Origin: an uncultured Dialister sp.
Lineage (GTDB): Bacteria; Bacillota; Negativicutes; Veillonellales; Dialisteraceae
Length of the DNA stretch: 55,624 nt
NCBI GenBank assembly: GCA_900545785.1
Contig: URAA01000001.1
Coordinates: 1 to 55,624 of the forward strand
Direction: 5' to 3'
The notes below the pieces were generated by a model that was not told where the DNA came from, did no database searches, and worked only from the letters and a program-made list of their open reading frames with translations. Position 1 is the stretch's first letter. Every line of letters starts with the position of its first letter. The position numbers were made by a program, and so were the translations under genes. This document shows, one piece after another, positions 4,051 to 24,641 of this stretch.

Positions 4051-4962
4051 ATGTACGGTATGTTTTTTGACGATTATGATACACCCGTTTACCGTCCCCC
4101 GAGCGAAGCGGAAAGCTTCATTCTCCGCGTCACGAGGGGCTGCGCACACAACAGATGCACCTATTGCAATATGTACCGCGGCGTTCCCTTTGAAATGCTT
4201 ACGGACGATCAGATCATGCGCCAGATCGCTATGGCATACTCCACCGATGCGGAAGGGGTACGGCGGGTATTTCTTGCTGACGGGGACGCGCTTGTTCTTC
4301 CCACGGACCGCCTTCTCAAAATCCTTGATACTTTAAAGAAGTATTTCCCCAATTTAGAAAGGGTTGCTTCCTATTCCGCCCCGGGAGACATTCTCAGAAA
4401 GACTCCGGAGGATCTGAAAGCTCTCCGCGAAGCAGGCCTCACTCTCCTCTACTACGGCATGGAAAGCGGCGATGCACAGACCCTTCGGGATATCCGGAAA
4501 GGGGTCAACGACAAGCAGTCCGTCGAAGCGGGAAAAAAGGTCATTGCCGCAGGCATGCAGCTTTCCATCATGATCATTTTGGGCATTGCAGGAAAAGAAG
4601 GATCTCTCCGCCATGCTCTTGCCACTGCAAAAGCGCTTAACGAAATCAAGCCGACCATGCTCTCCGCCCTCTCCCTCATGCTTTATCGGGGAAGCGAGCT
4701 GAAAGAACAGTTTGAAAGAGGCGAATTCCATCCCCTCACGCCGGCAGAACTGATGGAAGAATTGAAAATCATCGTGGAACATCTGGATCTTCCCGAAAGC
4801 GAGCATATGATTTTCCGGAGCAACCATGTATCCAACTATATCCGCCTTGCCGCTACTCTTCCTGCGGAAAAGAAAGAACTTTTGGAGGATATCGACTACA
4901 GCATTGCCCGTCTGAAAGAAATGAAAAACTGGGATATTTACAATCACGACTATACCAAATGA
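4051..4962 (+). CDS. Radical SAM protein of unknown function
   Basis: YRPPSEA..ILRVTRGCAHNRCTYCNMY Cys cluster, FLADGDAL, GMESG and FRSNHVSNY; ATG at 4051 after AAGGA RBS (ORF track starts at 3913). Confidence 0.88.
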   Translation: MYGMFFDDYDTPVYRPPSEAESFILRVTRGCAHNRCTYCNMYRGVPFEMLTDDQIMRQIAMAYSTDAEGVRRVFLADGDALVLPTDRLLKILDTLKKYFPNLERVASYSAPGDILRKTPEDLKALREAGLTLLYYGMESGDAQTLRDIRKGVNDKQSVEAGKKVIAAGMQLSIMIILGIAGKEGSLRHALATAKALNEIKPTMLSALSLMLYRGSELKEQFERGEFHPLTPAELMEELKIIVEHLDLPESEHMIFRSNHVSNYIRLAATLPAEKKELLEDIDYSIARLKEMKNWDIYNHDYTK

Positions 4963-4967
4963 GTAAG

Positions 4968-4996
4968 AAAGCTTCCTTTTGAAAGGGAGCTTTTTT
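4968..4996 (+). terminator. Intrinsic terminator
   Basis: AAAGCTTCC/GGGAGCTTT hairpin followed by a T run, just after the radical SAM stop. Confidence 0.7.
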
Positions 4997-5108
4997 AATA
5001 AAAAAATTTTCCTCGAAACACTCCTCTATATTCCGTGAAATTAATGATATAATGGGCAAAAGAGACTAAATTTAATTTTATCGGAATACTTTTTCCAAGG
5101 AGGACAAA

Positions 5109-6110
5109 TTGGAAAGTCTGGTCAGCCGTTGCAAAGATCCGCTTTATTTGCGGCGTGTTTTTTTTGTTTTTGCCATCACCGTCATCGGATCCTTTATTTA
5201 TGCGGTGGGCATGAATTTATTTCTGGTCCCTCACAACTTCTTAGCCGGCGGCCTTACGGGTATCGCCATGATTCTTTACTATCTTTTCGGCTTTCCCATC
5301 GGCGTCACCAACTTTGTCATGAACCTTCCCGTCCTGTTTTTCGCTTTAAAATACATGGGAAAATTTTACACGGTGGTCACCATTTTCGGCACCGTCGTTC
5401 TTTCCCTTTTCATTGACGCCACCTCCTTTATGTCCGAGTGGGTCGTCGTAAAAGATCCGCTCACTTCCGCTCTTTCCGCAGGCGTCGTCATCGGCATCGC
5501 CATGGGTATTCTCTACCGTTACAATTCAAGTACGGGAGGCCTCGACGTGGTGGGGGCAATCATCAAAAAATATTATAATCTGGAAATCGGTTATGTCGTT
5601 TTTGCCATCAATTTCATCATTATCATGGCAAGTGCTTGGATTTTCACTTTAGAACCTGCCATCTGTACTTTGATTTCCATGTATATCAATGCCACCGTTT
5701 CCTCCCGTATCGTTATCGGTTTTGCTCAGAGAAAAGCGGCTTTCATCGTCTCCGACAAACCTTTGGAAGTGTCCGATACCATTTTGAGAAATATTCATCA
5801 CGGCGCCACTCTTTTATACGGGCAGGGCGCTTTCAGCGGAAAAGACAAGAAAATCGTCTTTGCCATCGTCGATCTTCATCAGATCACGAAACTTCGCCAT
5901 TTTATCGAAAAAGTGGACCCTCACGCTTTCCTTTTCATCGTGAACACCACCGATGTCATCGGCAGAGGTTTCACAAGCCCCCTCGTCCCCAATCTTCCCG
6001 ACTCCACCCGTTATGCTTTGGATGAACACGGAAATATGGTTCCCACTCATTCATGGACATGGGAAATGGAACAGGAATCGGCAAATCATGATAAAAAATT
6101 CCGCTCTTAA
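5109..6110 (+). CDS. YitT-family membrane protein (DUF161/DUF2179)
   Basis: GGLTGIA, STGGLD, HGATLLYGQGAFSG and VDPHAF motifs; TTG start with AGGAGG RBS. Confidence 0.9.
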   Translation: MESLVSRCKDPLYLRRVFFVFAITVIGSFIYAVGMNLFLVPHNFLAGGLTGIAMILYYLFGFPIGVTNFVMNLPVLFFALKYMGKFYTVVTIFGTVVLSLFIDATSFMSEWVVVKDPLTSALSAGVVIGIAMGILYRYNSSTGGLDVVGAIIKKYYNLEIGYVVFAINFIIIMASAWIFTLEPAICTLISMYINATVSSRIVIGFAQRKAAFIVSDKPLEVSDTILRNIHHGATLLYGQGAFSGKDKKIVFAIVDLHQITKLRHFIEKVDPHAFLFIVNTTDVIGRGFTSPLVPNLPDSTRYALDEHGNMVPTHSWTWEMEQESANHDKKFRS

Positions 6111-16071: not shown

Positions 16072-16624
16072 TTATGAAATTTATTTTAGCATATTTAAAA
16101 AGTAAAAGGAATTGACGGAAGGAGCCGCGAGAAAGCAGGCAAGAAAGGAAGATTCCGTCCTTTTTTCCGAAAAGGTATCTTCGGATATCAAATCATCAAA
16201 CCGTCACGCAAGGAGATTACCATACATCACAAAAACATACATATCTACTGCACACTTGTTAGTAAAATCAGTCACTTTTCCGGTTCCCTAACAAATTCCC
16301 TCAATTCTTTCTCTCTACTGATTATTTCTGTAATTTGAAGCATGAGTATCTGAATCTGCCCGTTTAATGTTCACTTTGACATAAGTAACCCCCTCTTATT
16401 ACTTCCATTTTTACTTTTCTATCCGGAAAATTCTTAAATTTACTCTCGGAACTGATTATAATATTCACATAATCTTTATCATTACTTTCTTCTATCCGGC
16501 GACTTTATCTTTTGTAATTTCGGCAATTCCGGTTTAATTAATAATCTTTTACAATATTTTATTATCTTACCACATTTTGTTAAGTAAACGATTGTTCGAT
16601 ATTATGTTCCTTCATATACCTGCC

Positions 16625-17014
16625 TTATTGAAGAAAGTATGATTTCAGAAGCATTCGTTGTCGTTCGGATTCCTTTTTTTCATCATATAATATGTACAAC
16701 AGAAATGCGGCACGGGAAATACTTACATAATTCAGCAATCGATCCTCTTCTCTTTCAAATCCGTCCACATCAATAAAAATTACAACCGGCGACTCCAATC
16801 CTTTAAATCCGGAAACAGTAGAAAATCTGATTTTATCATAACAAGGGACAACTGATCCTCGAACCGATTCTAATTCTCCGCATTCAGATAAAATTCTTTT
16901 CGCAAAAAAGCAATTTCTCGGATTTGTTAGTTTATATTTAGAAAGAATAACAATATCTTTTTTTTGCACACCTGCATCAAATAATTCCTTCAGGATAGTT
17001 TTAATGATGTTCAA
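16625..17014 (-). pseudogene. C-terminal fragment of an SF1 (UvrD-like) helicase
   Basis: DIVILS, STVSGFKGLESPVV (motif V) and YVSISRA (motif VI) present, but no Walker A/B and no open upstream frame. Confidence 0.75.
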
Positions 17015-17271
17015 TTCATCAAATTAAGACTTAAATGCTTTGCTTGCTAGGATATATGCAAGCATAATTTCGTTATTTTTTTATACTTGCGGAGTACCTG
17101 TTTACACCAATTTATAACGCAAGTAATATAAGCCTCCACGCTATTCAAAAAATTTTCGAGAAATACTTTAGTAATCCGAATAATTAATCACTAACGACTT
17201 CAATCTTTATAAACCTCTACCTATAATGAAGTTTATATAAATGATAACTCCCTTTTATTTTTTATTCTCTG

Positions 17272-17910
17272 TTACTTGAAGGGACTAAAACATCCCGGGA
17301 ACATCTTCGGTGATAAATTATGTTCTTTTAAAATACGCTCTGCTTGTAGTATCGTTAAATTATTATATCGTAAAAAGAAATCATCAGATGCAAAATTTAT
17401 AAAAGTATCGGTCCAATAATACAATGCTAAACATAACACGCTAACTGTTTTTATTTTAATATTTAAAACACTATCAATATCGGAGATTACGTTCCAATAA
17501 TCAGTTCGCTTATTTGGTAAATCCCAACAAATTACCAGCGGAACAACTTCAAGCTCCCCAATATTCCCTCTACTCATCAATACCGCATAATCATCTAATA
17601 AGTTTCTAGGTGCATCCAAAATCTCTGTAGACGGAATTTCAATCTCTACAACAGCCTTATATTTATCAAAAGTTATTAAAGCATCAAACCGCTCGCTATT
17701 ATCACCTTTTCTTGGAAAATATATTTCTCCCCCAAGTTTCGTTAATAATGTAGATAATAACTCACGTTCTCTTTGATAGTTTAGCTTTATATCACTCAAA
17801 CTATTCTTTAACCTAAGCATTTTAACGACCAACGGCAAGTCATTATCAAGAAGTTCTAATATATAAGACCGTTCTTGCATATATTCTTCTTTACTCTCAA
17901 ACACCTTCAA
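17272..17910 (-). CDS. Putative restriction endonuclease small (catalytic-only) subunit
   Basis: Aligns by eye with the C-terminal PD-(D/E)xK domain of the upstream 563-aa ORF (RFDALI..VEIE; LPNKRTD); overlaps it by 14 nt. Confidence 0.72.
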   Translation of the reverse strand: MKVFESKEEYMQERSYILELLDNDLPLVVKMLRLKNSLSDIKLNYQRERELLSTLLTKLGGEIYFPRKGDNSERFDALITFDKYKAVVEIEIPSTEILDAPRNLLDDYAVLMSRGNIGELEVVPLVICWDLPNKRTDYWNVISDIDSVLNIKIKTVSVLCLALYYWTDTFINFASDDFFLRYNNLTILQAERILKEHNLSPKMFPGCFSPFK

Positions 17911-19588
17911 ATTTAATCACCCCCCGATGTCCCTTAAATTCTGATAATTCATAAGATATGTCATTTTTAGCACAATAAAAAGCCGCCTTAATAAGAGTTT
18001 CTATATCTAAAATTGAAATATTAATTTTATACGTTTCATAGATTTCCATTATCAGTTTATACACATCAGACCTTTTATTAGGCACCTTAAATCCACAAGC
18101 AAAGGAGCTCACATCATAAGTTGTAGTATATGGTTTACGTGCTAATAATATAACTTTATTCTCCAAAGCTTGTCTAATAGCCTTAACAGATAACATTTCT
18201 TCTTCGGTTGGAGATTTCACTTCAACAGGTATCGAGTACTGGTCATCTGGAATAATAACATCATAACGCATATTATTATTTCCGGCAGACGGTGCATAAG
18301 CATCTCGCTCAAAAACAAATCCTAATAAATCAGCTACCAAAGGGTAGAAATCTGATTGTTTCATAATTTTTATTTCAGATAAAAATGTCGCCACCGCACC
18401 ATCTAAATTATCTGCCACATTCGAAATTCTAAGTAACAACATTTCTTTTATACGTTCGTCTTTAGACAATTCAGTGTCTTTAGCCTCAACTATCGTATCA
18501 GGAGTAACTACTTCAGATCTCTCTTCAGTTAATATTTCCACAAGTTCATGCTTTCGACTCGTTTCCAAAGTATACTGTGGTAATATTTCTTTTAATTCAC
18601 TTCCGGAAAAGAATTGATATGGTGAAAATAAAATACCAGAATATCCTTTATCTGTGCAAATATCCTTAATCAAATCTTCATATTCCTTCAGCTCATTATC
18701 TACATCAAGATTTGCCCTTTTAAACATATATAACAAGGATAACTCGACTAACTTCACATCTTCAGCGCTTTCGATATCAATGGATTCACCCCTAATATTA
18801 ATAGAACTGCCAATTACATCCGCAACTAACTGTCCCTTTTCGGTCAAAACTAAAAACACGCTATTAGAACCATATATATTTCTATTTTCCTTTTTAAACC
18901 AGCCTGCAAAACACAATGATGACATTACAAATCTTGTTAGATTTCTAACAGAATTAGGTTTCATTCCATTTTCTTCAGCTAGTTGTTCTATTGCTTCATC
19001 CAACGCCTCCATGCTTTGCGTTACTCTTATAGCTTTAATAAAATTAATTCGCTCTTCTTGTTCCTCAGAAGAATAACCATCATTGAGATTCATGGGACCT
19101 AATAAAATTTCATCACGATTAATTATTCCATCTAATCGATGCGCAAAATTAATCATGTTCACAAATGGCTTGTTAATATCTCTAAATTTAACATCCAATA
19201 TATGATTAGGATACTCTATGCCTAATAAGCATTGCTCAAATAATGATTTAGACGCTTTATCTACTAACGCTATATGCATTCCTAAAAAAGTAAAATTAAA
19301 GCGTAGTGCCGTCTCTGCCGATGTTATCCAACCAAGAGCTCTAAATAACTCCGCATAACTTTTGGCTTGCATTTTCATTGATTTTCTAGAATCATCTTTA
19401 ATCTGATAAGAGCGTCTTAATGCTTCATCTCCAGTATAGCCCGACGAACTTGCTAACAATTCCCTTGCATAAAACTCTGCAATATTATCCAAATCGAAAT
19501 AATCCATATCAGAAAATTCTTCATACATTTTTTTGAAGTTTTCAATAAGTATGCCCATATTTGAAATAGGATTTCTAAATCGTATCAT
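17897..19588 (-). CDS. Putative Type IIS/IIT restriction endonuclease large subunit
   Basis: Long N-terminal putative recognition region plus C-terminal RYDVII...PVEVK PD-(D/E)xK motif; downstream of two DNA MTases. Confidence 0.78.
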   Translation of the reverse strand: MIRFRNPISNMGILIENFKKMYEEFSDMDYFDLDNIAEFYARELLASSSGYTGDEALRRSYQIKDDSRKSMKMQAKSYAELFRALGWITSAETALRFNFTFLGMHIALVDKASKSLFEQCLLGIEYPNHILDVKFRDINKPFVNMINFAHRLDGIINRDEILLGPMNLNDGYSSEEQEERINFIKAIRVTQSMEALDEAIEQLAEENGMKPNSVRNLTRFVMSSLCFAGWFKKENRNIYGSNSVFLVLTEKGQLVADVIGSSINIRGESIDIESAEDVKLVELSLLYMFKRANLDVDNELKEYEDLIKDICTDKGYSGILFSPYQFFSGSELKEILPQYTLETSRKHELVEILTEERSEVVTPDTIVEAKDTELSKDERIKEMLLLRISNVADNLDGAVATFLSEIKIMKQSDFYPLVADLLGFVFERDAYAPSAGNNNMRYDVIIPDDQYSIPVEVKSPTEEEMLSVKAIRQALENKVILLARKPYTTTYDVSSFACGFKVPNKRSDVYKLIMEIYETYKINISILDIETLIKAAFYCAKNDISYELSEFKGHRGVIKFEGV

Positions 19589-19699
19589 GTCTTACAACTC
19601 CCCACACGCTCGAATGACTATAATTATATTAAGGCATCGATACATTTGTAAAAAATTGATTTACCTATACTTAAATTATAAACCAATTTAGTATTAATT

Positions 19700-20521
19700 T
19701 TAATCCTGTTTATTATTTTTCAATCTTTCGTTAGCAATGTCACACCATTTGGATTCCAATTCAATACCTAACCACTTGATATTATGTCCTTGTTTATTAA
19801 GTTTCTCACAACATACTCCCAGTGTCCCCGAGCCATGGAAAGGATCTAAAATAGTTCCTTCATATTTTCCTAAAGAGTTTTTTGGACAAAAAGCTTTTAT
19901 AAGCTCCATTATAAGTGATTCCGGCTTTTGAGTGGGATGCGCTGTCCGTTCACTTTGATAAGCTTTCCCTGCCAAAGTTGGAAATGACCATACATCTCCC
20001 CGCATAGCTCCATTAGGATTAGGAGTCCATATCTTTCTCTCTCCATTTTTACCTTTATAATACACTGGATTTTTTAACCTCTCAGTACTTTTATATGGAA
20101 CTCTTACATCATCAACATTATATGTCCATTTTGTTTTCGACTTAGAAAACCACAAAAAAGGTTCATACTGAGTTAGAGGAGATTTTGAGGTTCTCGAAAA
20201 GCCATTTTCATAATACCAAATATTCATCCTACGATAATGAAGCCCTATATTATACATTATAACCTGAATAAAGCCGATATAATGATGAATTCCAAACCAC
20301 AAAATACTGCCATCACTCTTTAATAGCTCTTTACATAGCAGCAAACGTTCCCTAGTAATATTTAAAAATTCATCCAACTCCAGCATATCACTTTTATTTC
20401 CAAAATCTTTATTAAGATTATATGGTGGATCAGTACATACTAAATCAAATTTCAATCCTTTTTTTACAAATTCTTTTAATATAATATCACTGTCACCATT
20501 AATTACACGATTATATTCCAT
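19700..20521 (-). CDS. Beta-class amino DNA methyltransferase (m6A or m4C)
   Basis: DPPY (motif IV) precedes HPTQKP and DPFHGSGT (motif I). Confidence 0.93.
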   Translation of the reverse strand: MEYNRVINGDSDIILKEFVKKGLKFDLVCTDPPYNLNKDFGNKSDMLELDEFLNITRERLLLCKELLKSDGSILWFGIHHYIGFIQVIMYNIGLHYRRMNIWYYENGFSRTSKSPLTQYEPFLWFSKSKTKWTYNVDDVRVPYKSTERLKNPVYYKGKNGERKIWTPNPNGAMRGDVWSFPTLAGKAYQSERTAHPTQKPESLIMELIKAFCPKNSLGKYEGTILDPFHGSGTLGVCCEKLNKQGHNIKWLGIELESKWCDIANERLKNNKQD

Positions 20522-21687
20522 TATTTAGTACCTTTCACTTTCTCTTTCTTAAAGATAAGCACGTACTGATGATGTATATTCTCAACATATCCAAATGGAT
20601 ATCCATAAGGTAAGAGACTCTTATGATTTTGCAATAAAATTTTCGTTCCTTGCAATTTCAATACCCCTCCAGCCGGAATCATTTTTTTATTCAAATGATA
20701 AATTAAGTCACTGTGAAAACTAATAAATTCAGACTTATCTCTAAAATCAGAAACAATAATAGCCATATATTTACCTGGCTTAATAATTCTTGCACATTGC
20801 AAAAATATTTTATTCACCAATGTATCAAGAAACACATTATAATCTTTAATATTTCCCAAATCATTCTCGTCTTCAGAATATTTTGTTTCTAAATTATTAG
20901 CCACTCTATTTTTCTTTACCTTCTGATCTTGCTTATTTAGAATTCCCCAATAAGGTGGACTGGTCACCATAAAATCCATGGAATTCGTATCCAACTTCGC
21001 CAACTCGTTACATGAATCACCATTAATAAAATTATGGTTTTCACTACTTCCTATCCCGACTTCCGTTTCTAATCGCTTAATAGAAAGCTCATGCCATTTT
21101 TTAGATAATTCAATACTAGTGCAAAATCTATTACTTATCGCACAAGCTTTTGCCGTAGAGCCAACTCCACCAAAAGGTTCTAATACTTTCATCCCTTGTT
21201 TCGTAAAAAAAGTTATTAACTGTAATATATCCTGAAAAGAAAAAGGAGCTGGATGTAATTTCTCTATTTGAGCCTCTATATGATTTGCCCCCAATCCTTT
21301 TTGATAAAAGAAGCTTTTTGTTGCAGGCAACCACTCCTTACCTGTTAAATCATTAAGTTTGTTCCTAGGATCCACAGTACCATTTACCATATCTATATAT
21401 ACCTGAGTTTTCATAAACTCCGATAATTCTAAATAGTTATATCTTTTTCTGCCTCTGCTGATAACTACATGAATTAAATCACTTTGAATTGCTTTATCAA
21501 ACTTATGCCGTGAAAATTCAAGAAGTTTCATAGCTTCTGCCCCAGTAATTAATTCACCACCATTATGATGCTCATCCATATTTTCGTTCATCTCTTCATT
21601 ATTTTTTTTTTCTGACTCTAAAAAATTCTCTCCATCAAACATATTATATTCACAATATTCAAATTTAATCTTTTTTTCACTAGTCAT
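20521..21687 (-). CDS. Alpha-order N4-cytosine DNA methyltransferase with N-terminal HTH
   Basis: HPAPF and EPFGGVGST (motif I) precede TSPPY (motif IV, m4C-type); N-terminal LITGAEAMKLLEFSRHKF...GRKRY resembles an excisionase/MerR-like HTH. Confidence 0.88.
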   Translation of the reverse strand: MTSEKKIKFEYCEYNMFDGENFLESEKKNNEEMNENMDEHHNGGELITGAEAMKLLEFSRHKFDKAIQSDLIHVVISRGRKRYNYLELSEFMKTQVYIDMVNGTVDPRNKLNDLTGKEWLPATKSFFYQKGLGANHIEAQIEKLHPAPFSFQDILQLITFFTKQGMKVLEPFGGVGSTAKACAISNRFCTSIELSKKWHELSIKRLETEVGIGSSENHNFINGDSCNELAKLDTNSMDFMVTSPPYWGILNKQDQKVKKNRVANNLETKYSEDENDLGNIKDYNVFLDTLVNKIFLQCARIIKPGKYMAIIVSDFRDKSEFISFHSDLIYHLNKKMIPAGGVLKLQGTKILLQNHKSLLPYGYPFGYVENIHHQYVLIFKKEKVKGTK

Positions 21688-22030
21688 ATTTCATTTCTCC
21701 ACAATAAATACATTATATTTTTCGTGTATTTTATAACAATTTATTCACACAGAAGAATCAATCATCCTCTATTTTTACACTATTATATCCTTAAACTTCT
21801 AATTATTCTATTTTCAAAAAACTTGAACTTTATAATCATCTATCCCAACAATATTCTATATGCCTATAATAAACTGATAGCCAAGATATTCTTTATTCTA
21901 TTTATTATACTTAACACAGCTATATATTGTCATCTATTAAGCATATCACGTACTAATGAAAAATAGCTAAAAATCACATAAAAATTACTCTATATTATCA
22001 ATATATTTATTTAGACCTTTTTCTAAAAGA

Positions 22031-22063
22031 AATACCCTCAAGAGAATTACTCTTGAGGGTATT
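22031..22063. terminator. Intrinsic terminator
   Basis: AATACCCTCAAGAG-AATTA-CTCTTGAGGGTATT perfect inverted repeat. Confidence 0.75.
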
Positions 22064-22113
22064 TTCTTTATTGTATTTTCCTGTGGTAGACCTAGCCTCT
22101 ACTTGCTTTTCTA

Positions 22114-22452
22114 CTAGTATCTGCTTGCTCTTTTATTTCGGCGAGGAATCGCTTCCCTCTCATCCTCCAGTTTTTCCTTCCACGATCTCCGAGCCTGTCT
22201 CATTCCAACGCTCGTCCAATTCCACCGCTTGAGGTCATTACTCTCCCCGATTTCCTCGGCTATCATTTTGTGAAGCGTTCTGGCTGCTATTGCGTACTTC
22301 GGAGAGTCCAGATTTCTCCACGACTCTATGGCTACGTTCATTTCTACCATTTCATCCAAATACCTCGCCGTGAAGTCCTATAGAGCTTCTTCTGGAACCT
22401 TCCACTCCAACACTAACCACCCCATTACTTCCGCTAAAAATAACTTGTCCAT
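22114..22452 (-). pseudogene. Hypothetical gene interrupted by an in-frame TAG
   Basis: GGGGAG RBS, ATG at 22452, MDKLFLAEVMGWLVLEWKVPEEAL then TAG (22378-22380); the same frame continues into the 22114..22359 ORF. Confidence 0.6.
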
Positions 22453-22581
22453 AGTAACTCCCCTTTATTGACTAATCATTATTATCAAAGCTATCTTAAT
22501 TATACTTGATTTTATTATGACCGGTAAACCCTCTTATAAAAAACTCCCTCTAAGCGTCTAAAACGCTTAGAGGATTTTTCA

Positions 22582-22776
22582 TTATAAGTAACCTTCTTGT
22601 CTTTTCCGCTCAATATATTCTTCAACAGAAATCCTTGAAATCTTCCAAACGCGTGTAATCTTAAACCCCTTAATCTCATTACTTCGTAATAATTCATATA
22701 TAATATTCTTACTAGTAGATAACCAGTCACAAACATCATCTACTGTCAATATTTCATTTCTACCATTATATTCCAT
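22582..22776 (-). CDS. Excisionase-like HTH (HTH_17) DNA-binding protein
   Basis: ILTVDDVCDWLSTSKNIIYELLRSNEIKGFKITRVWKI; GGAGG RBS; hairpin terminator at ~22548-22574. Confidence 0.85.
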   Translation of the reverse strand: MEYNGRNEILTVDDVCDWLSTSKNIIYELLRSNEIKGFKITRVWKISRISVEEYIERKRQEGYL

Positions 22777-22894
22777 TATTAAATCCCTCCTAGCATTTTT
22801 TACCTGTATTTACATGTTAATATTCGCTTAAAATGATGTAAAATGCTAAGTCGAGAAAAAACGGCTCATATCCCCCTAATACCGTTACTTAATC

Positions 22895-23095
22895 TTACTT
22901 ACGCTTTCTTGCGTTAAGACGTTCTTCCATATAGCTTTCTATGGCTTCTGCTGGGATTTTCCATGCATTTGAATCTTCATCCTTATAAGCAAGAAGTTTT
23001 TCCTTTTCAATCAATTCATAAACTTTATTCGTTGATATATTTAATACCAGGGCAGTCTCTCGTGTAGTCAACGCCTCTTTTGAAATATTCATCAT
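22895..23095 (-). CDS. Excisionase-like HTH (HTH_17) DNA-binding protein
   Basis: LTTRETALVLNISTNKVYELIEKEKL.A....WKIP; AAGGGAG RBS before ATG 23095. Confidence 0.85.
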   Translation of the reverse strand: MMNISKEALTTRETALVLNISTNKVYELIEKEKLLAYKDEDSNAWKIPAEAIESYMEERLNARKRK

Positions 23096-23333
23096 TTCAG
23101 CTCCCTTCTTATAGTATTTAATAACATGTTGCATTATTAAGCATTAAGTTATGTTATCTATTAGTATCTAACACCATAAAAGCCTATAGCCATAATCGCT
23201 ATAGGCTTTTTATTGTGTAAAAACGGAGAATTTCACTTATATATTATAGCTTTGAATGATCCGCTTATGACTTAATCATAACGCCCTTCGAAAGGATCAT
23301 AGTAACATAGTTATCAAAAATCAGGAGGTCATC

Positions 23334-23492
23334 ATGGCTAATTACTGTATCAACCACATTGTATTTCACAGCACCAACTACGACCAGCTCAACCTTTTGT
23401 TTACAAATATTGAGTTGACACTTAAAACCCCACGCAAGTCGCTTTTATCTTGTACCGAAAGATTTTACTTACATCCATTTTTTCAGTCTTGA
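23334..23492 (+). pseudogene. Probable 5' fragment of a mobile-element gene truncated at the island boundary
   Basis: Strong AGGAGG RBS and ATG, MANYCINHIVFHSTNYDQLNLLF...; runs out of AT-rich DNA into the antisense of the neighbouring host gene and stops after ~52 codons. Confidence 0.45.
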
Positions 23493-24641
23493 AAACAGTC
23501 CGCCTTCTTTCGGTTTTTCTTCTCTTTCTTCCCTGACGGGCTGTCGTTTCGGTTTTGCCGTCCTTTTTATTTTTTCTTCCCGTTTTTTCCTGTCTTCCGT
23601 CGACTCAAAGGGCATGGGCGCCGTGAACGCGGGCATTTTCAAAATAGGGGGCGCCATGATTTTCGGCTGCATGAATTTGGGTTTCGCCGCCGTTTTGGAT
23701 ATTTCGCTCCTCCCCCACGGGACATAGTGATACGACTTGGATGACGGATCGGGCACATTTTTTTCAGTGATGTATTTGGCACCGTTGAAAGGCACGCCCC
23801 GCAGTCTTTCCAAAAGCTGGGCCGCCATGATCTGCGGTGAAAAATAGGAAAAAGGCAGCCGCGGCGCCATCCGTGCCACCGAGGAAAGGAAGGAAGATTT
23901 CACTTCGTCGGTCGTCATTTTCTGTTCGTGCCGGAGTTCGTCCATAAGAAGGATCATCCCTTTTTGCGTGGGAAAAAGATTTTCATAAGGGGTGACGGTA
24001 TTTTTATTTCCCATCCCCGACATATCGAGGAAGAACACAAGATAGAGATAGGTCAGCGCTTTATCTTTCGCCTCCGCACGAAGGTGGAAATTGGCATTGA
24101 TATAGTATAAATTGCGCAGTTTCGACCATTCTCCCGCCATAATGAAGAGGGACATTTTCTGCTGAAACGCTCTTTCCAGCACATCTCTTGCCGTATAGGG
24201 ATTTCCCTTCATGGCCAGAGCGGAGCGGGATTCTCCTATTTCTCCCTCGGTGAGGCCGTATTTTTCCCGTACATTCAAAACATAGGCCAGATGATGGCCG
24301 ATTTCTGCCTTCCCTTTCGGTTCTACCACATAAATTTTGGGCACACCGTGGGCATAATCTTTTTCGGGAATATCTTTGATGATCCGCCGGACCAGATCGC
24401 CGTGGCTTCCTTCTCCGGAAAATCCGTAACGTTTCAAGAAATCGGAGAGAGCTTTGTCGGGAAGCATCGTCACGGTTTCCTGCGGCCTGCTTTCCCGTAT
24501 CCAGCCGTCCGCATAAAGACGGTCAAGCCTGAGATCCGCATCTTTTCCGTAGGTATTTTGCAGGTACGGCGGCATTTTTGAATGCACCGGCTTTCCTTCA
24601 AAATAATCCAGTATGAGTATGTCGCGTATGGACAGCTTCAA
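23469..24641 (-). CDS. Hypothetical protein with an N-terminal SAP-like motif and a basic C-terminal tail
   Basis: LSDFLKRYGFSGEGSHGDLVRRI resembles a SAP helix-loop-helix; host-like composition; TTG start with GGAGG RBS. Confidence 0.65.
   Translation of the reverse strand: MKLSIRDILILDYFEGKPVHSKMPPYLQNTYGKDADLRLDRLYADGWIRESRPQETVTMLPDKALSDFLKRYGFSGEGSHGDLVRRIIKDIPEKDYAHGVPKIYVVEPKGKAEIGHHLAYVLNVREKYGLTEGEIGESRSALAMKGNPYTARDVLERAFQQKMSLFIMAGEWSKLRNLYYINANFHLRAEAKDKALTYLYLVFFLDMSGMGNKNTVTPYENLFPTQKGMILLMDELRHEQKMTTDEVKSSFLSSVARMAPRLPFSYFSPQIMAAQLLERLRGVPFNGAKYITEKNVPDPSSKSYHYVPWGRSEISKTAAKPKFMQPKIMAPPILKMPAFTAPMPFESTEDRKKREEKIKRTAKPKRQPVREEREEKPKEGGLFSRLKKWM

Follow-up and report, generated by a model that had tools for sequence, protein, structure and literature searches.

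The window analysed here, meaning the whole stretch of 55,624 nucleotides (nt), is contig 1 of an uncultured Dialister sp. genome, the assembly of which comprises 1.46 Mb in 165 contigs and is 90.6% complete. This window carries a cluster of four genes that encode two predicted DNA methyltransferases, named M1 and M2, and two predicted nuclease proteins, named R-large and R-small. In our view, the locus is likely a heterodimeric Type IIS restriction-modification (R-M) system of class III, the BspD6I/BstNBI type. The genes, as taken from the list of open reading frames (ORFs), and a promoter-like site between them are the following:

21687..20521, minus strand: M1, 388 amino acids, with the motif TSPPYW
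20521..19700, minus strand: M2, 273 amino acids, with the motif TDPPYN
19588..17897, minus strand: R-large, 563 amino acids
17910..17272, minus strand: R-small, 212 amino acids, with a TTG start
19623..19652, minus strand: promoter-like site TTTACA-N18-TATAAT in the spacer between M2 and R-large, with 11/12 hexamer matches

The initial annotation of this DNA had described a cluster of four co-oriented genes, made up of an SPPY methyltransferase, a DPPY methyltransferase and two proteins of 563 and 212 amino acids, with overlapping stop and start codons within each pair. This layout was confirmed in full. All four genes lie on the minus strand at the coordinates given above; the M1 stop and the M2 start share the sequence TAATG, which amounts to an overlap of 1 nt, and 14 nt are shared by the R-large and R-small genes. 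The R-small TTG start is preceded by GGGGGGTGA, and GGAG is found upstream of the M1 ATG. Between the two pairs lies a spacer of 111 nt, where the promoter-like site is followed by GGGGAG ahead of the R-large ATG. Judged from its hexamers, this site is a candidate for a promoter of the R genes' own. A scan of the region returned 28 promoter sites, compared to a mean of 27.7 in shuffled sequences, which in such AT-rich DNA is not above chance; hence, the match is by itself no evidence for a promoter. A strong terminator-like hairpin (16 pairs and a T run) was observed at 22025-22065, between an ORF of 81 amino acids and the promoter region of M1.

Of the 7,999 candidates scored, 477 proteins were homologous to R-large at E <= 0.001, and R-small has 359 matches at the same threshold. 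Since homologues are this numerous and the set of four genes recurs in other genomes, the four ORFs are far beyond what chance would produce.

The methyltransferase pair

Both M1 and M2 are members of the N6_N4_Mtase family (Pfam PF01555). Each of them scored above the profile cut-off of 26.7 bits and displayed both an S-adenosylmethionine (SAM)-binding motif and a (D/S)PPY motif. M2 matched the full profile (165.6 bits, E 2.1e-48), and M1 matched it in two stretches with swapped order (51.6 bits, E 1.6e-13). Both proteins also matched Type II methyltransferase profiles of PADLOC, among which MTase_II (PDLC03391) covered residues 108-382 of M1 with an E-value of 4.6e-29.

In M1, motif I reads FGGVGS and motif IV is the SPPY at residues 243-246. 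Motifs X-I (HPAPFS...FGGVGS) occupy approximately residues 144-176, only some 65 residues ahead of motif IV. The order of motifs in M1 had initially been annotated as that of the alpha class. We found that the permutation relative to the beta order is real, as seen from the split Pfam match, but that the alpha assignment is not exact, as we read the sequence, since the stretch from motifs X-I to motif IV is too short to hold a target-recognition domain of the alpha type. The nearest sequences to M1 in the PDB were TTHA0409 (2zie, E 1.1e-13) and N4-cytosine methyltransferases (8s9n, E 5.5e-6). Taken on its sequence, M1 is probably an N4-cytosine enzyme with a permuted motif order.

At its N-terminus, M1 is extended by about 100 variable residues, which might autoregulate the operon and so replace a controller protein. 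Residues 47-95 (window positions 21403-21549) gave a weak match to HTH_17, with an E-value of 0.17 that is under the threshold. HTH_17 is also the family to which two small ORFs belong that lie at the right end of the island carrying the locus, at 22582-22776 and 22895-23134.

Meanwhile, M2 carries FHGSGT as motif I and DPPY as motif IV. It matched the adenine-specific methyltransferase model PRK11524 of NCBIfam with an E-value of 7.4e-30, under the cut-off of that model. Among solved structures, its closest relative is M.MboIIA (1g60; E 1.6e-28), a methyltransferase that produces N6-methyladenine (m6A) in GAAGA. The alignment spans residues 25-264, which is nearly the full length of M2, including the region between the catalytic and the SAM-binding halves. 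M2 is a beta-class enzyme and probably acts on N6-adenine. The similarity between M2 and M.MboIIA is too low to transfer specificity, and is a weak lead to a purine-rich half-site, nothing beyond. MboII also pairs an m6A methyltransferase with one that produces N4-methylcytosine (m4C), and the restriction enzymes of the two systems differ in kind, MboII being a single chain. Our assignment of m4C to M1 and of m6A to M2 follows from their SPPY and DPPY catalytic motifs, according to the established usage of these motifs.

The nuclease proteins and the BspD6I architecture

Two domains were delimited in R-large:

18566..19588, minus strand: DNA-recognition domain, residues 1-341, with winged-helix subdomains as in FokI, BpuJI and Nt.BspD6I
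17897..18463, minus strand: PD-(D/E)XK nuclease domain, residues 376-563 plus the stop codon, with D443, E456 and K458, aligned to ss.BspD6I by VIA-align

The sequence of R-large did not match any family of Pfam, NCBIfam or PADLOC. Weak matches of the R proteins to DpnII-MboI (E 0.03-0.09) and to TRCF were below threshold and were set aside. The nearest homologues besides R-large itself share 65-66% identity with it, and nearly all of them are unnamed or annotated as "hypothetical". A homologue from Leptotrichia, with 55% identity, bears a UniRef name that begins with "AlwI restriction endonuclea...", which means that kinship with AlwI has already been recognised in part by the databases. In the ESM Atlas, the neighbours of R-large are "hypothetical" clusters in which FokI_cleav_dom occurs in 11-34% and RE_AlwI in 14-29% of the members, and the true FokI and AlwI clusters come next after these. 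Residues D443, E456 and K458 form a PD-ExK site and are invariant in 16 homologues.

An AlphaFold2 model of R-large built from the alignment reached a mean predicted local distance difference test score (pLDDT) of 75, with poor regions at residues 37-70 and in the linker at 343-374. When this model was searched with Foldseek, the top eight matches were all structures of Nt.BspD6I (6qnz_B with E 3.5e-10, 2ewf with E 3.8e-9), followed by FokI (1fok_A, 3.2e-8) and by the recognition domain of BpuJI (2vla_A, 1.3e-3). The model was then re-aligned with VIA-align. Nt.BspD6I aligned over 378 residues with a Z-score of 16.8, spanning the model from residue 1 to 563 and the chain from residue 6 to 599. 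The recognition domain of BpuJI (5hnf_A) aligned to residues 1-340 of the model (Z 13.5, 247 residues, root-mean-square deviation (rmsd) 5.4 Å), FokI aligned from residue 1 onwards (Z 12.1), and the small subunit ss.BspD6I (2p14) aligned to residues 381-563 (Z 10.3, 155 residues, rmsd 3.6 Å).

R-small, which has no recognition domain, is a paralogue of the C-terminal nuclease domain of R-large, judging from two sequence comparisons. BLASTP aligned it to residues 431-551 of R-large with 29% identity (E 6e-12), and hhalign matched the two family profiles over 145 columns with a probability of 97.5% (E 5.2e-12). Searches with the R-small sequence against Pfam, NCBIfam, PADLOC and the PDB sequences returned nothing meaningful. 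Its model (pLDDT 85.3) retrieved the nuclease domain of Nt.BspD6I (E 1.2e-5), ss.BspD6I (2p14, 6.6e-4) and FokI (1.3e-3) through Foldseek. In the BLASTP alignment, D76, E89 and E91 of R-small stand opposite D443, E456 and K458 of R-large, giving a D-X12-ExE site in which the lysine is replaced by glutamate. Among the short forms of this family, D76, E89 and the final residue K212 are invariant, and position 91 is a glutamate in 12 of 13 sequences and a glutamine in the other one. We surveyed these motifs more widely in the best 150 representatives of the 359 matches, 121 of which matched the search pattern. The third catalytic position was a glutamate in 111 of those 121 and a lysine in none, and the last residue was a lysine in 144 of the 150 (in the window, the end of R-small lies at 17272-17277). 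From this pattern, the terminal lysine of the small subunit may complete the ExE active site. The start of the gene is conserved as well: in all of the eight short-form small-subunit genes that were read (loci L003, L005 and L007-L012), a TTG start overlaps the stop of the large subunit as it does in the window, suggesting translational coupling and a low or tied expression.

A prediction of the complex between residues 376-563 of R-large and R-small supports, at the level of a model, that the two proteins bind each other. Three runs gave interface scores (ipSAE) of 0.86, 0.87 and 0.87, and all three controls gave 0.00. Of 157 solved complexes, 116 attain the mark applied to this score, as do 2 of 215 mismatched pairs. 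At least 98% of the contacts agreed between the runs, and the partner pLDDT was at least 87. The predicted interface involves residues 468-484 and 508-520 of R-large and residues 101-113 and 137-149 of R-small. These helices align with each other in hhalign, hence the predicted dimer is pseudo-twofold. Since dimers of the FokI type have already been solved, the result may partly reflect a memory of PDB structures. When R-small was searched against longer proteins, the only match was a protein of 426 amino acids (P0271), in which a PF01555 methyltransferase is joined to half an R-small-like sequence (52% of R-small covered, at 55% identity); this could be either a fusion or a run-together gene call.

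These properties place the locus with the BspD6I kind by architecture and fold, and outside of the AlwI and FokI families of Pfam by sequence. According to the available text of the published reports, the subunits of BstNBI/BspD6I have 604 and 186 amino acids, the small one resembles the large one's catalytic domain, and it cuts only in combination with the large one (PMC3017599, PMC4081073, PMC6261011). R.BspD6I/BstNBI (GAGTC 4/6; 2ewf and 2p14) shares with our locus the order of a large gene followed by a small one, with similar sizes (563 and 212 amino acids here). It likewise combines a large subunit made up of a FokI-like recognition region and a PD-(D/E)XK domain with a small subunit that is a copy of this nuclease domain. 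Its structures are the best structural matches for both R-large and R-small. Unlike BspD6I, the small subunit described here displays ExE instead of ExK, an invariant C-terminal lysine and a conserved TTG start, and the methyltransferases form an SPPY (m4C-type) and DPPY (m6A-type) pair; the sequences also differ, with an identity of about 12%, no match to RE_AlwI and no match among the PDB sequences.

With FokI (GGATG 9/13; 1fok, 2fok), R-large shares the three-subdomain recognition region, the linker and the C-terminal nuclease domain. The predicted dimer of R-large and R-small makes use of a helix pair of the nuclease domain, which we take to be equivalent to the dimer interface of FokI. 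The second nuclease domain of FokI comes from a second identical molecule, whereas here it would come from a separate small gene, and the likeness is one of fold only, with no match to a FokI family of Pfam. Meanwhile, residues 1-340 of R-large can be superposed on the recognition domain of BpuJI (2vla), a match that is limited to this domain and has an identity of 10-12%.

Recurrence of the four-gene set and the case for a heterodimeric enzyme

A scan of one genome per species, combined with tblastn searches with the four proteins, yielded 29 loci with relatives of R-large. All four genes were found in 22 of these 29 loci, always in the order M1 then M2 and R-large then R-small. In 10 of the 22 loci the genes are co-oriented; according to the contig labels, these belong to Ruminococcaceae, Eubacteriales, Lachnospiraceae, Veillonella, Saccharibacteria, Clostridium, Bacilli and one Woesearchaeota. 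In the other 12, which include Aliidiomarina, Enterococcus ikei and many Pseudomonadota, the R-large and R-small pair converges on the M2 and M1 pair. Overall, the loci span Bacillota, Saccharibacteria, Pseudomonadota and others. Four loci (L006, L027, L029 and L030) are cut by contig ends, and one (L017), located near a contig end, shows R-large and R-small only. The two loci closest by identity (85-87%), L013 at 342-1421 and L014 at 4425-5504, retain only residues 123-269 of M2 and residues 1-168 of R-large. These are truncated remnants and show that the module decays in some genomes. Within the near group, the methyltransferases are conserved at 72-87%, compared to 56-66% for the nucleases. 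The remaining DNA and ORFs of the island that carries the locus had no counterpart in any of the 29 related loci, and we therefore regard the set of four genes as the mobile unit.

The initial annotation had proposed a heterodimeric R-M system of the Type IIS/IIT kind, and our results strengthen this proposal. The large subunit joins a recognition domain to a C-terminal PD-(D/E)XK domain, as seen from the structural alignments and from D443, E456 and K458. The small subunit lies directly downstream, is homologous to the nuclease domain of the large one and has no recognition domain of its own. The two adjacent PF01555 methyltransferases, one with SPPY and one with DPPY, are co-conserved with the nucleases in 22 of the 29 loci. 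It is the combination of the fold matches to BspD6I and FokI, the homology between R-small and R-large, the predicted heterodimer and the four-gene synteny that supports a heterodimeric Type IIS enzyme of class III.

By analogy with the characterised systems, we infer the methylated bases, their assignment to the strands, the cleavage and the existence of the heterodimer in vivo, and postulate the following course of events. M1 (m4C) and M2 (m6A) would protect the host by methylating one strand each of an asymmetric site. A monomer of R-large would bind this site through its N-terminal winged-helix domain, and its PD-ExK domain (D443, E456 and K458) would cut a single strand, on one side and a few bases away. 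R-small, presumably translated by coupling from the conserved TTG that overlaps the R-large stop, would dock on the nuclease domain of DNA-bound R-large through the equivalent helix pair, forming a FokI-like pseudo-twofold dimer. It would then cut the second strand with its variant site of D76, E89 and E91.

Several observations weigh against the class III assignment. In the sequence searches, R-large found no PDB sequence even at an E-value of 10, nor did a profile of 16 sequences find one. The RE_AlwI profile (PF09491, which includes AlwI, BstNBI, PleI and MlyI) did not match R-large, its halves, R-small or 16 members of the R-large family at E <= 10, and FokI_cleav_dom (PF09254) did not match R-large, its two halves (residues 376-563 among them), R-small or these 16 members at the same threshold. 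As a consequence of these two results, we assign the R proteins to an unnamed family. Even within the structural alignments, the identity between R-large and Nt.BspD6I is only about 12%. Approximately one quarter of the R-large model has a pLDDT below 60, and the Foldseek matches have a whole-chain template modelling score (TM-score) of about 0.28 and an rmsd of about 25 Å, values that we attribute to a placement of the domains that either differs or is mis-modelled. R-small displays ExE and no canonical lysine, so its activity is argued from conservation. A search of R-small against longer proteins did not find a natural fusion with R-large, which is weak evidence, and we found no biochemical or methylome record for this locus or for members of the family.

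The unusual site of R-small leads to a different account, in which R-large homodimerises in the manner of FokI and cuts both strands on its own, and R-small acts as a non-catalytic regulator, for example by capping the interface until the host is methylated. The absence of a canonical lysine, with a glutamate in 111 of the 121 pattern-matching family members, would fit such a role, as would the predicted interface, which uses the very helices that a homodimer would use, and the conservation of a weak TTG start. A mere cap, however, is not expected to keep an invariant D76 and E89 together with an E or Q at position 91 that is conserved across a family of 359 detectable members. Active enzymes with an acidic or amide residue at the position of the lysine do exist, as in sites of the BamHI and BglII type. 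In the accessible text of the reports on BspD6I, which is the architectural model for our locus, the small subunit is catalytic (PMC3017599, PMC4081073). We thus consider a regulatory R-small unlikely. We see even less reason to expect a natural nicking system, in which only one strand is ever cut, or a non-functional relic with one or more inactive genes on a decaying island. The island does contain a helicase fragment and long non-coding stretches, truncated remnants are all that is left in L013 and L014, the loci with the highest identity (85-87%), and the sequence derives from an assembly of 165 contigs that is 90.6% complete. Yet all four ORFs are full length in comparison to their homologues, their catalytic and SAM-binding motifs are all intact and ribosome-binding sites are present. 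An intact R gene next to its methyltransferases normally implies selection for restriction. The system is well preserved and probably functional.

The initial annotation had also drawn analogies to BspD6I/BstNBI and to BsrDI and BtsI. The folds and the paralogy uphold the former, and the latter had to be abandoned. A heterodimer of the BsrDI/BtsI type would likewise display a large and a small gene next to two methyltransferases, as observed here. In the portions available from a 2010 review, the small subunits of BsrDI and BtsI carry a PD-Xn-E-X12-QR site that is akin to the N-terminal one of Mva1269I and differs from that of their large subunits. R-small instead copies the nuclease domain of R-large itself, with a D-X12-ExE site, and its fold matches BspD6I and FokI, so that an enzyme of the BsrDI/BtsI type is hardly credible at this locus. 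The same portions of the review list BtsI, BsrDI and BstNBI/BspD6I as the examples of heterodimeric Type IIS enzymes and ask if it is typical that the nuclease domain is duplicated as a small subunit.

This locus and its relatives display the BspD6I arrangement within a family of sequences that is missed by Pfam. Few Type IIS heterodimers built in this way have been characterised. The 477 large and 359 small relatives and the occurrence of the four-gene set across phyla suggest that the two-subunit design is common and not a curiosity. The proteins may already figure in REBASE as putative enzymes. Because natural nicking enzymes come from large subunits such as this one, it would be of practical use to have a new specificity.

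Iron-sulfur relatives and the acquired island

Most of the small-subunit family, its larger and more diverse part, consists of long forms of 290-370 amino acids from distant relatives (loci L015-L029, for example L015:6703-7728; proteins P0128-P0270), which carry an N-terminal domain resembling 4Fe-4S dicluster ferredoxins. Among the 150 representatives surveyed, 112 have at least 290 amino acids, and 111 of these 112 display the motif CxxCxxCxxxC. Two of the long small subunits matched 4Fe-4S families of Pfam (Fer4 with E 6.4e-9, Fer4_7 with E 4.9e-8). The R-small of the window does not have a 4Fe-4S domain. We found no report of an iron-sulfur subunit in a Type II or Type IIS restriction enzyme in the literature searched, which left most subscription journals outside, and a search of the literature for the locus tags of two homologues returned nothing relevant. 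A far broader proposal, which we put forward tentatively and regard as doubtful, is that the R proteins form a large unnamed branch of FokI/AlwI-like enzymes in which a separate subunit always cuts the second strand with a D...ExE site and a terminal lysine, that the enzyme of the window has a new recognition sequence, that R-large alone is a natural nickase and that the relatives are the first iron-sulfur enzymes of Type II. If this were true, the 4Fe-4S relatives could possibly couple cleavage to the redox or oxygen state.

The surroundings of the R-M genes in the window contain the following features:

16097..23573, no strand: low-GC insertion of about 7.4 kb with the R-M system, between tRNA-Arg(CCT) and a conserved gene of 390 amino acids
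15995..16071, minus strand: tRNA-Arg (anticodon CCT), found with ARAGORN, at the left edge, with the island abutting the 5' side of the gene
16625..17014, minus strand: C-terminal remnant of a UvrD-like helicase, 129 amino acids (Pfam UvrD_C_2 with E 8.3e-7, AAA_12 with E 4.5e-5)
22582-22776 and 22895-23134, minus strand: two small ORFs of the HTH_17 family (excisionase/MerR-like), at the island's right end (Pfam E 9.6e-11 and 1.9e-10)

The GC content is 0.29-0.35 across 16-22 kb, compared to about 0.47 around it. In the closest relative (G042), the flanking homology blocks are only 113 nt apart; in the window, the first block stops at 16096 and the second starts at 23574. Because blocks that adjoin in this relative are separated here by positions 16097-23573, the R-M system resides on an insertion of about 7.4 kb. 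R-large was not found in a search of 40 relatives, of which 24 share the genus and 16 the order. The island has been acquired, probably recently, and for the host it represents an ordinary acquired defence island. Neither an integrase nor a convincing att-type flanking direct repeat was found in the island, and neither DNA nor protein searches of a plasmid collection returned any match.

Downstream of R-small, the ORF at 16625-17014 also gave weak matches to PADLOC profiles (GajB, NERD-helicase), all of them at the C-terminal end of profiles of 519-612 positions. This ORF is probably what remains of a further defence gene, and it has no counterpart in the related R-M loci. The ORF of 81 amino acids had no matches. 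The four genes had been called the only large intact genes in a decaying AT-rich island. The low GC content and the integrity of the large genes were confirmed, but the two small HTH_17 ORFs are intact too, and the decay that can be seen consists of one C-terminal helicase fragment and of long non-coding AT-rich stretches.

The conserved gene of 390 amino acids, at 23469-24641, has no Pfam match and is present in 27 of the 30 same-genus genomes searched. In 19 of these 27 genomes a tRNA-like match lies within 1 kb of this gene, and in one more it lies at about 2 kb. Among the other seven, the tRNA-like match is off that contig in five and at least 15 kb away in two. To the right of the island follow core genes, namely those for type IV pilus or secretion ATPases together with rsmG and mnmG.

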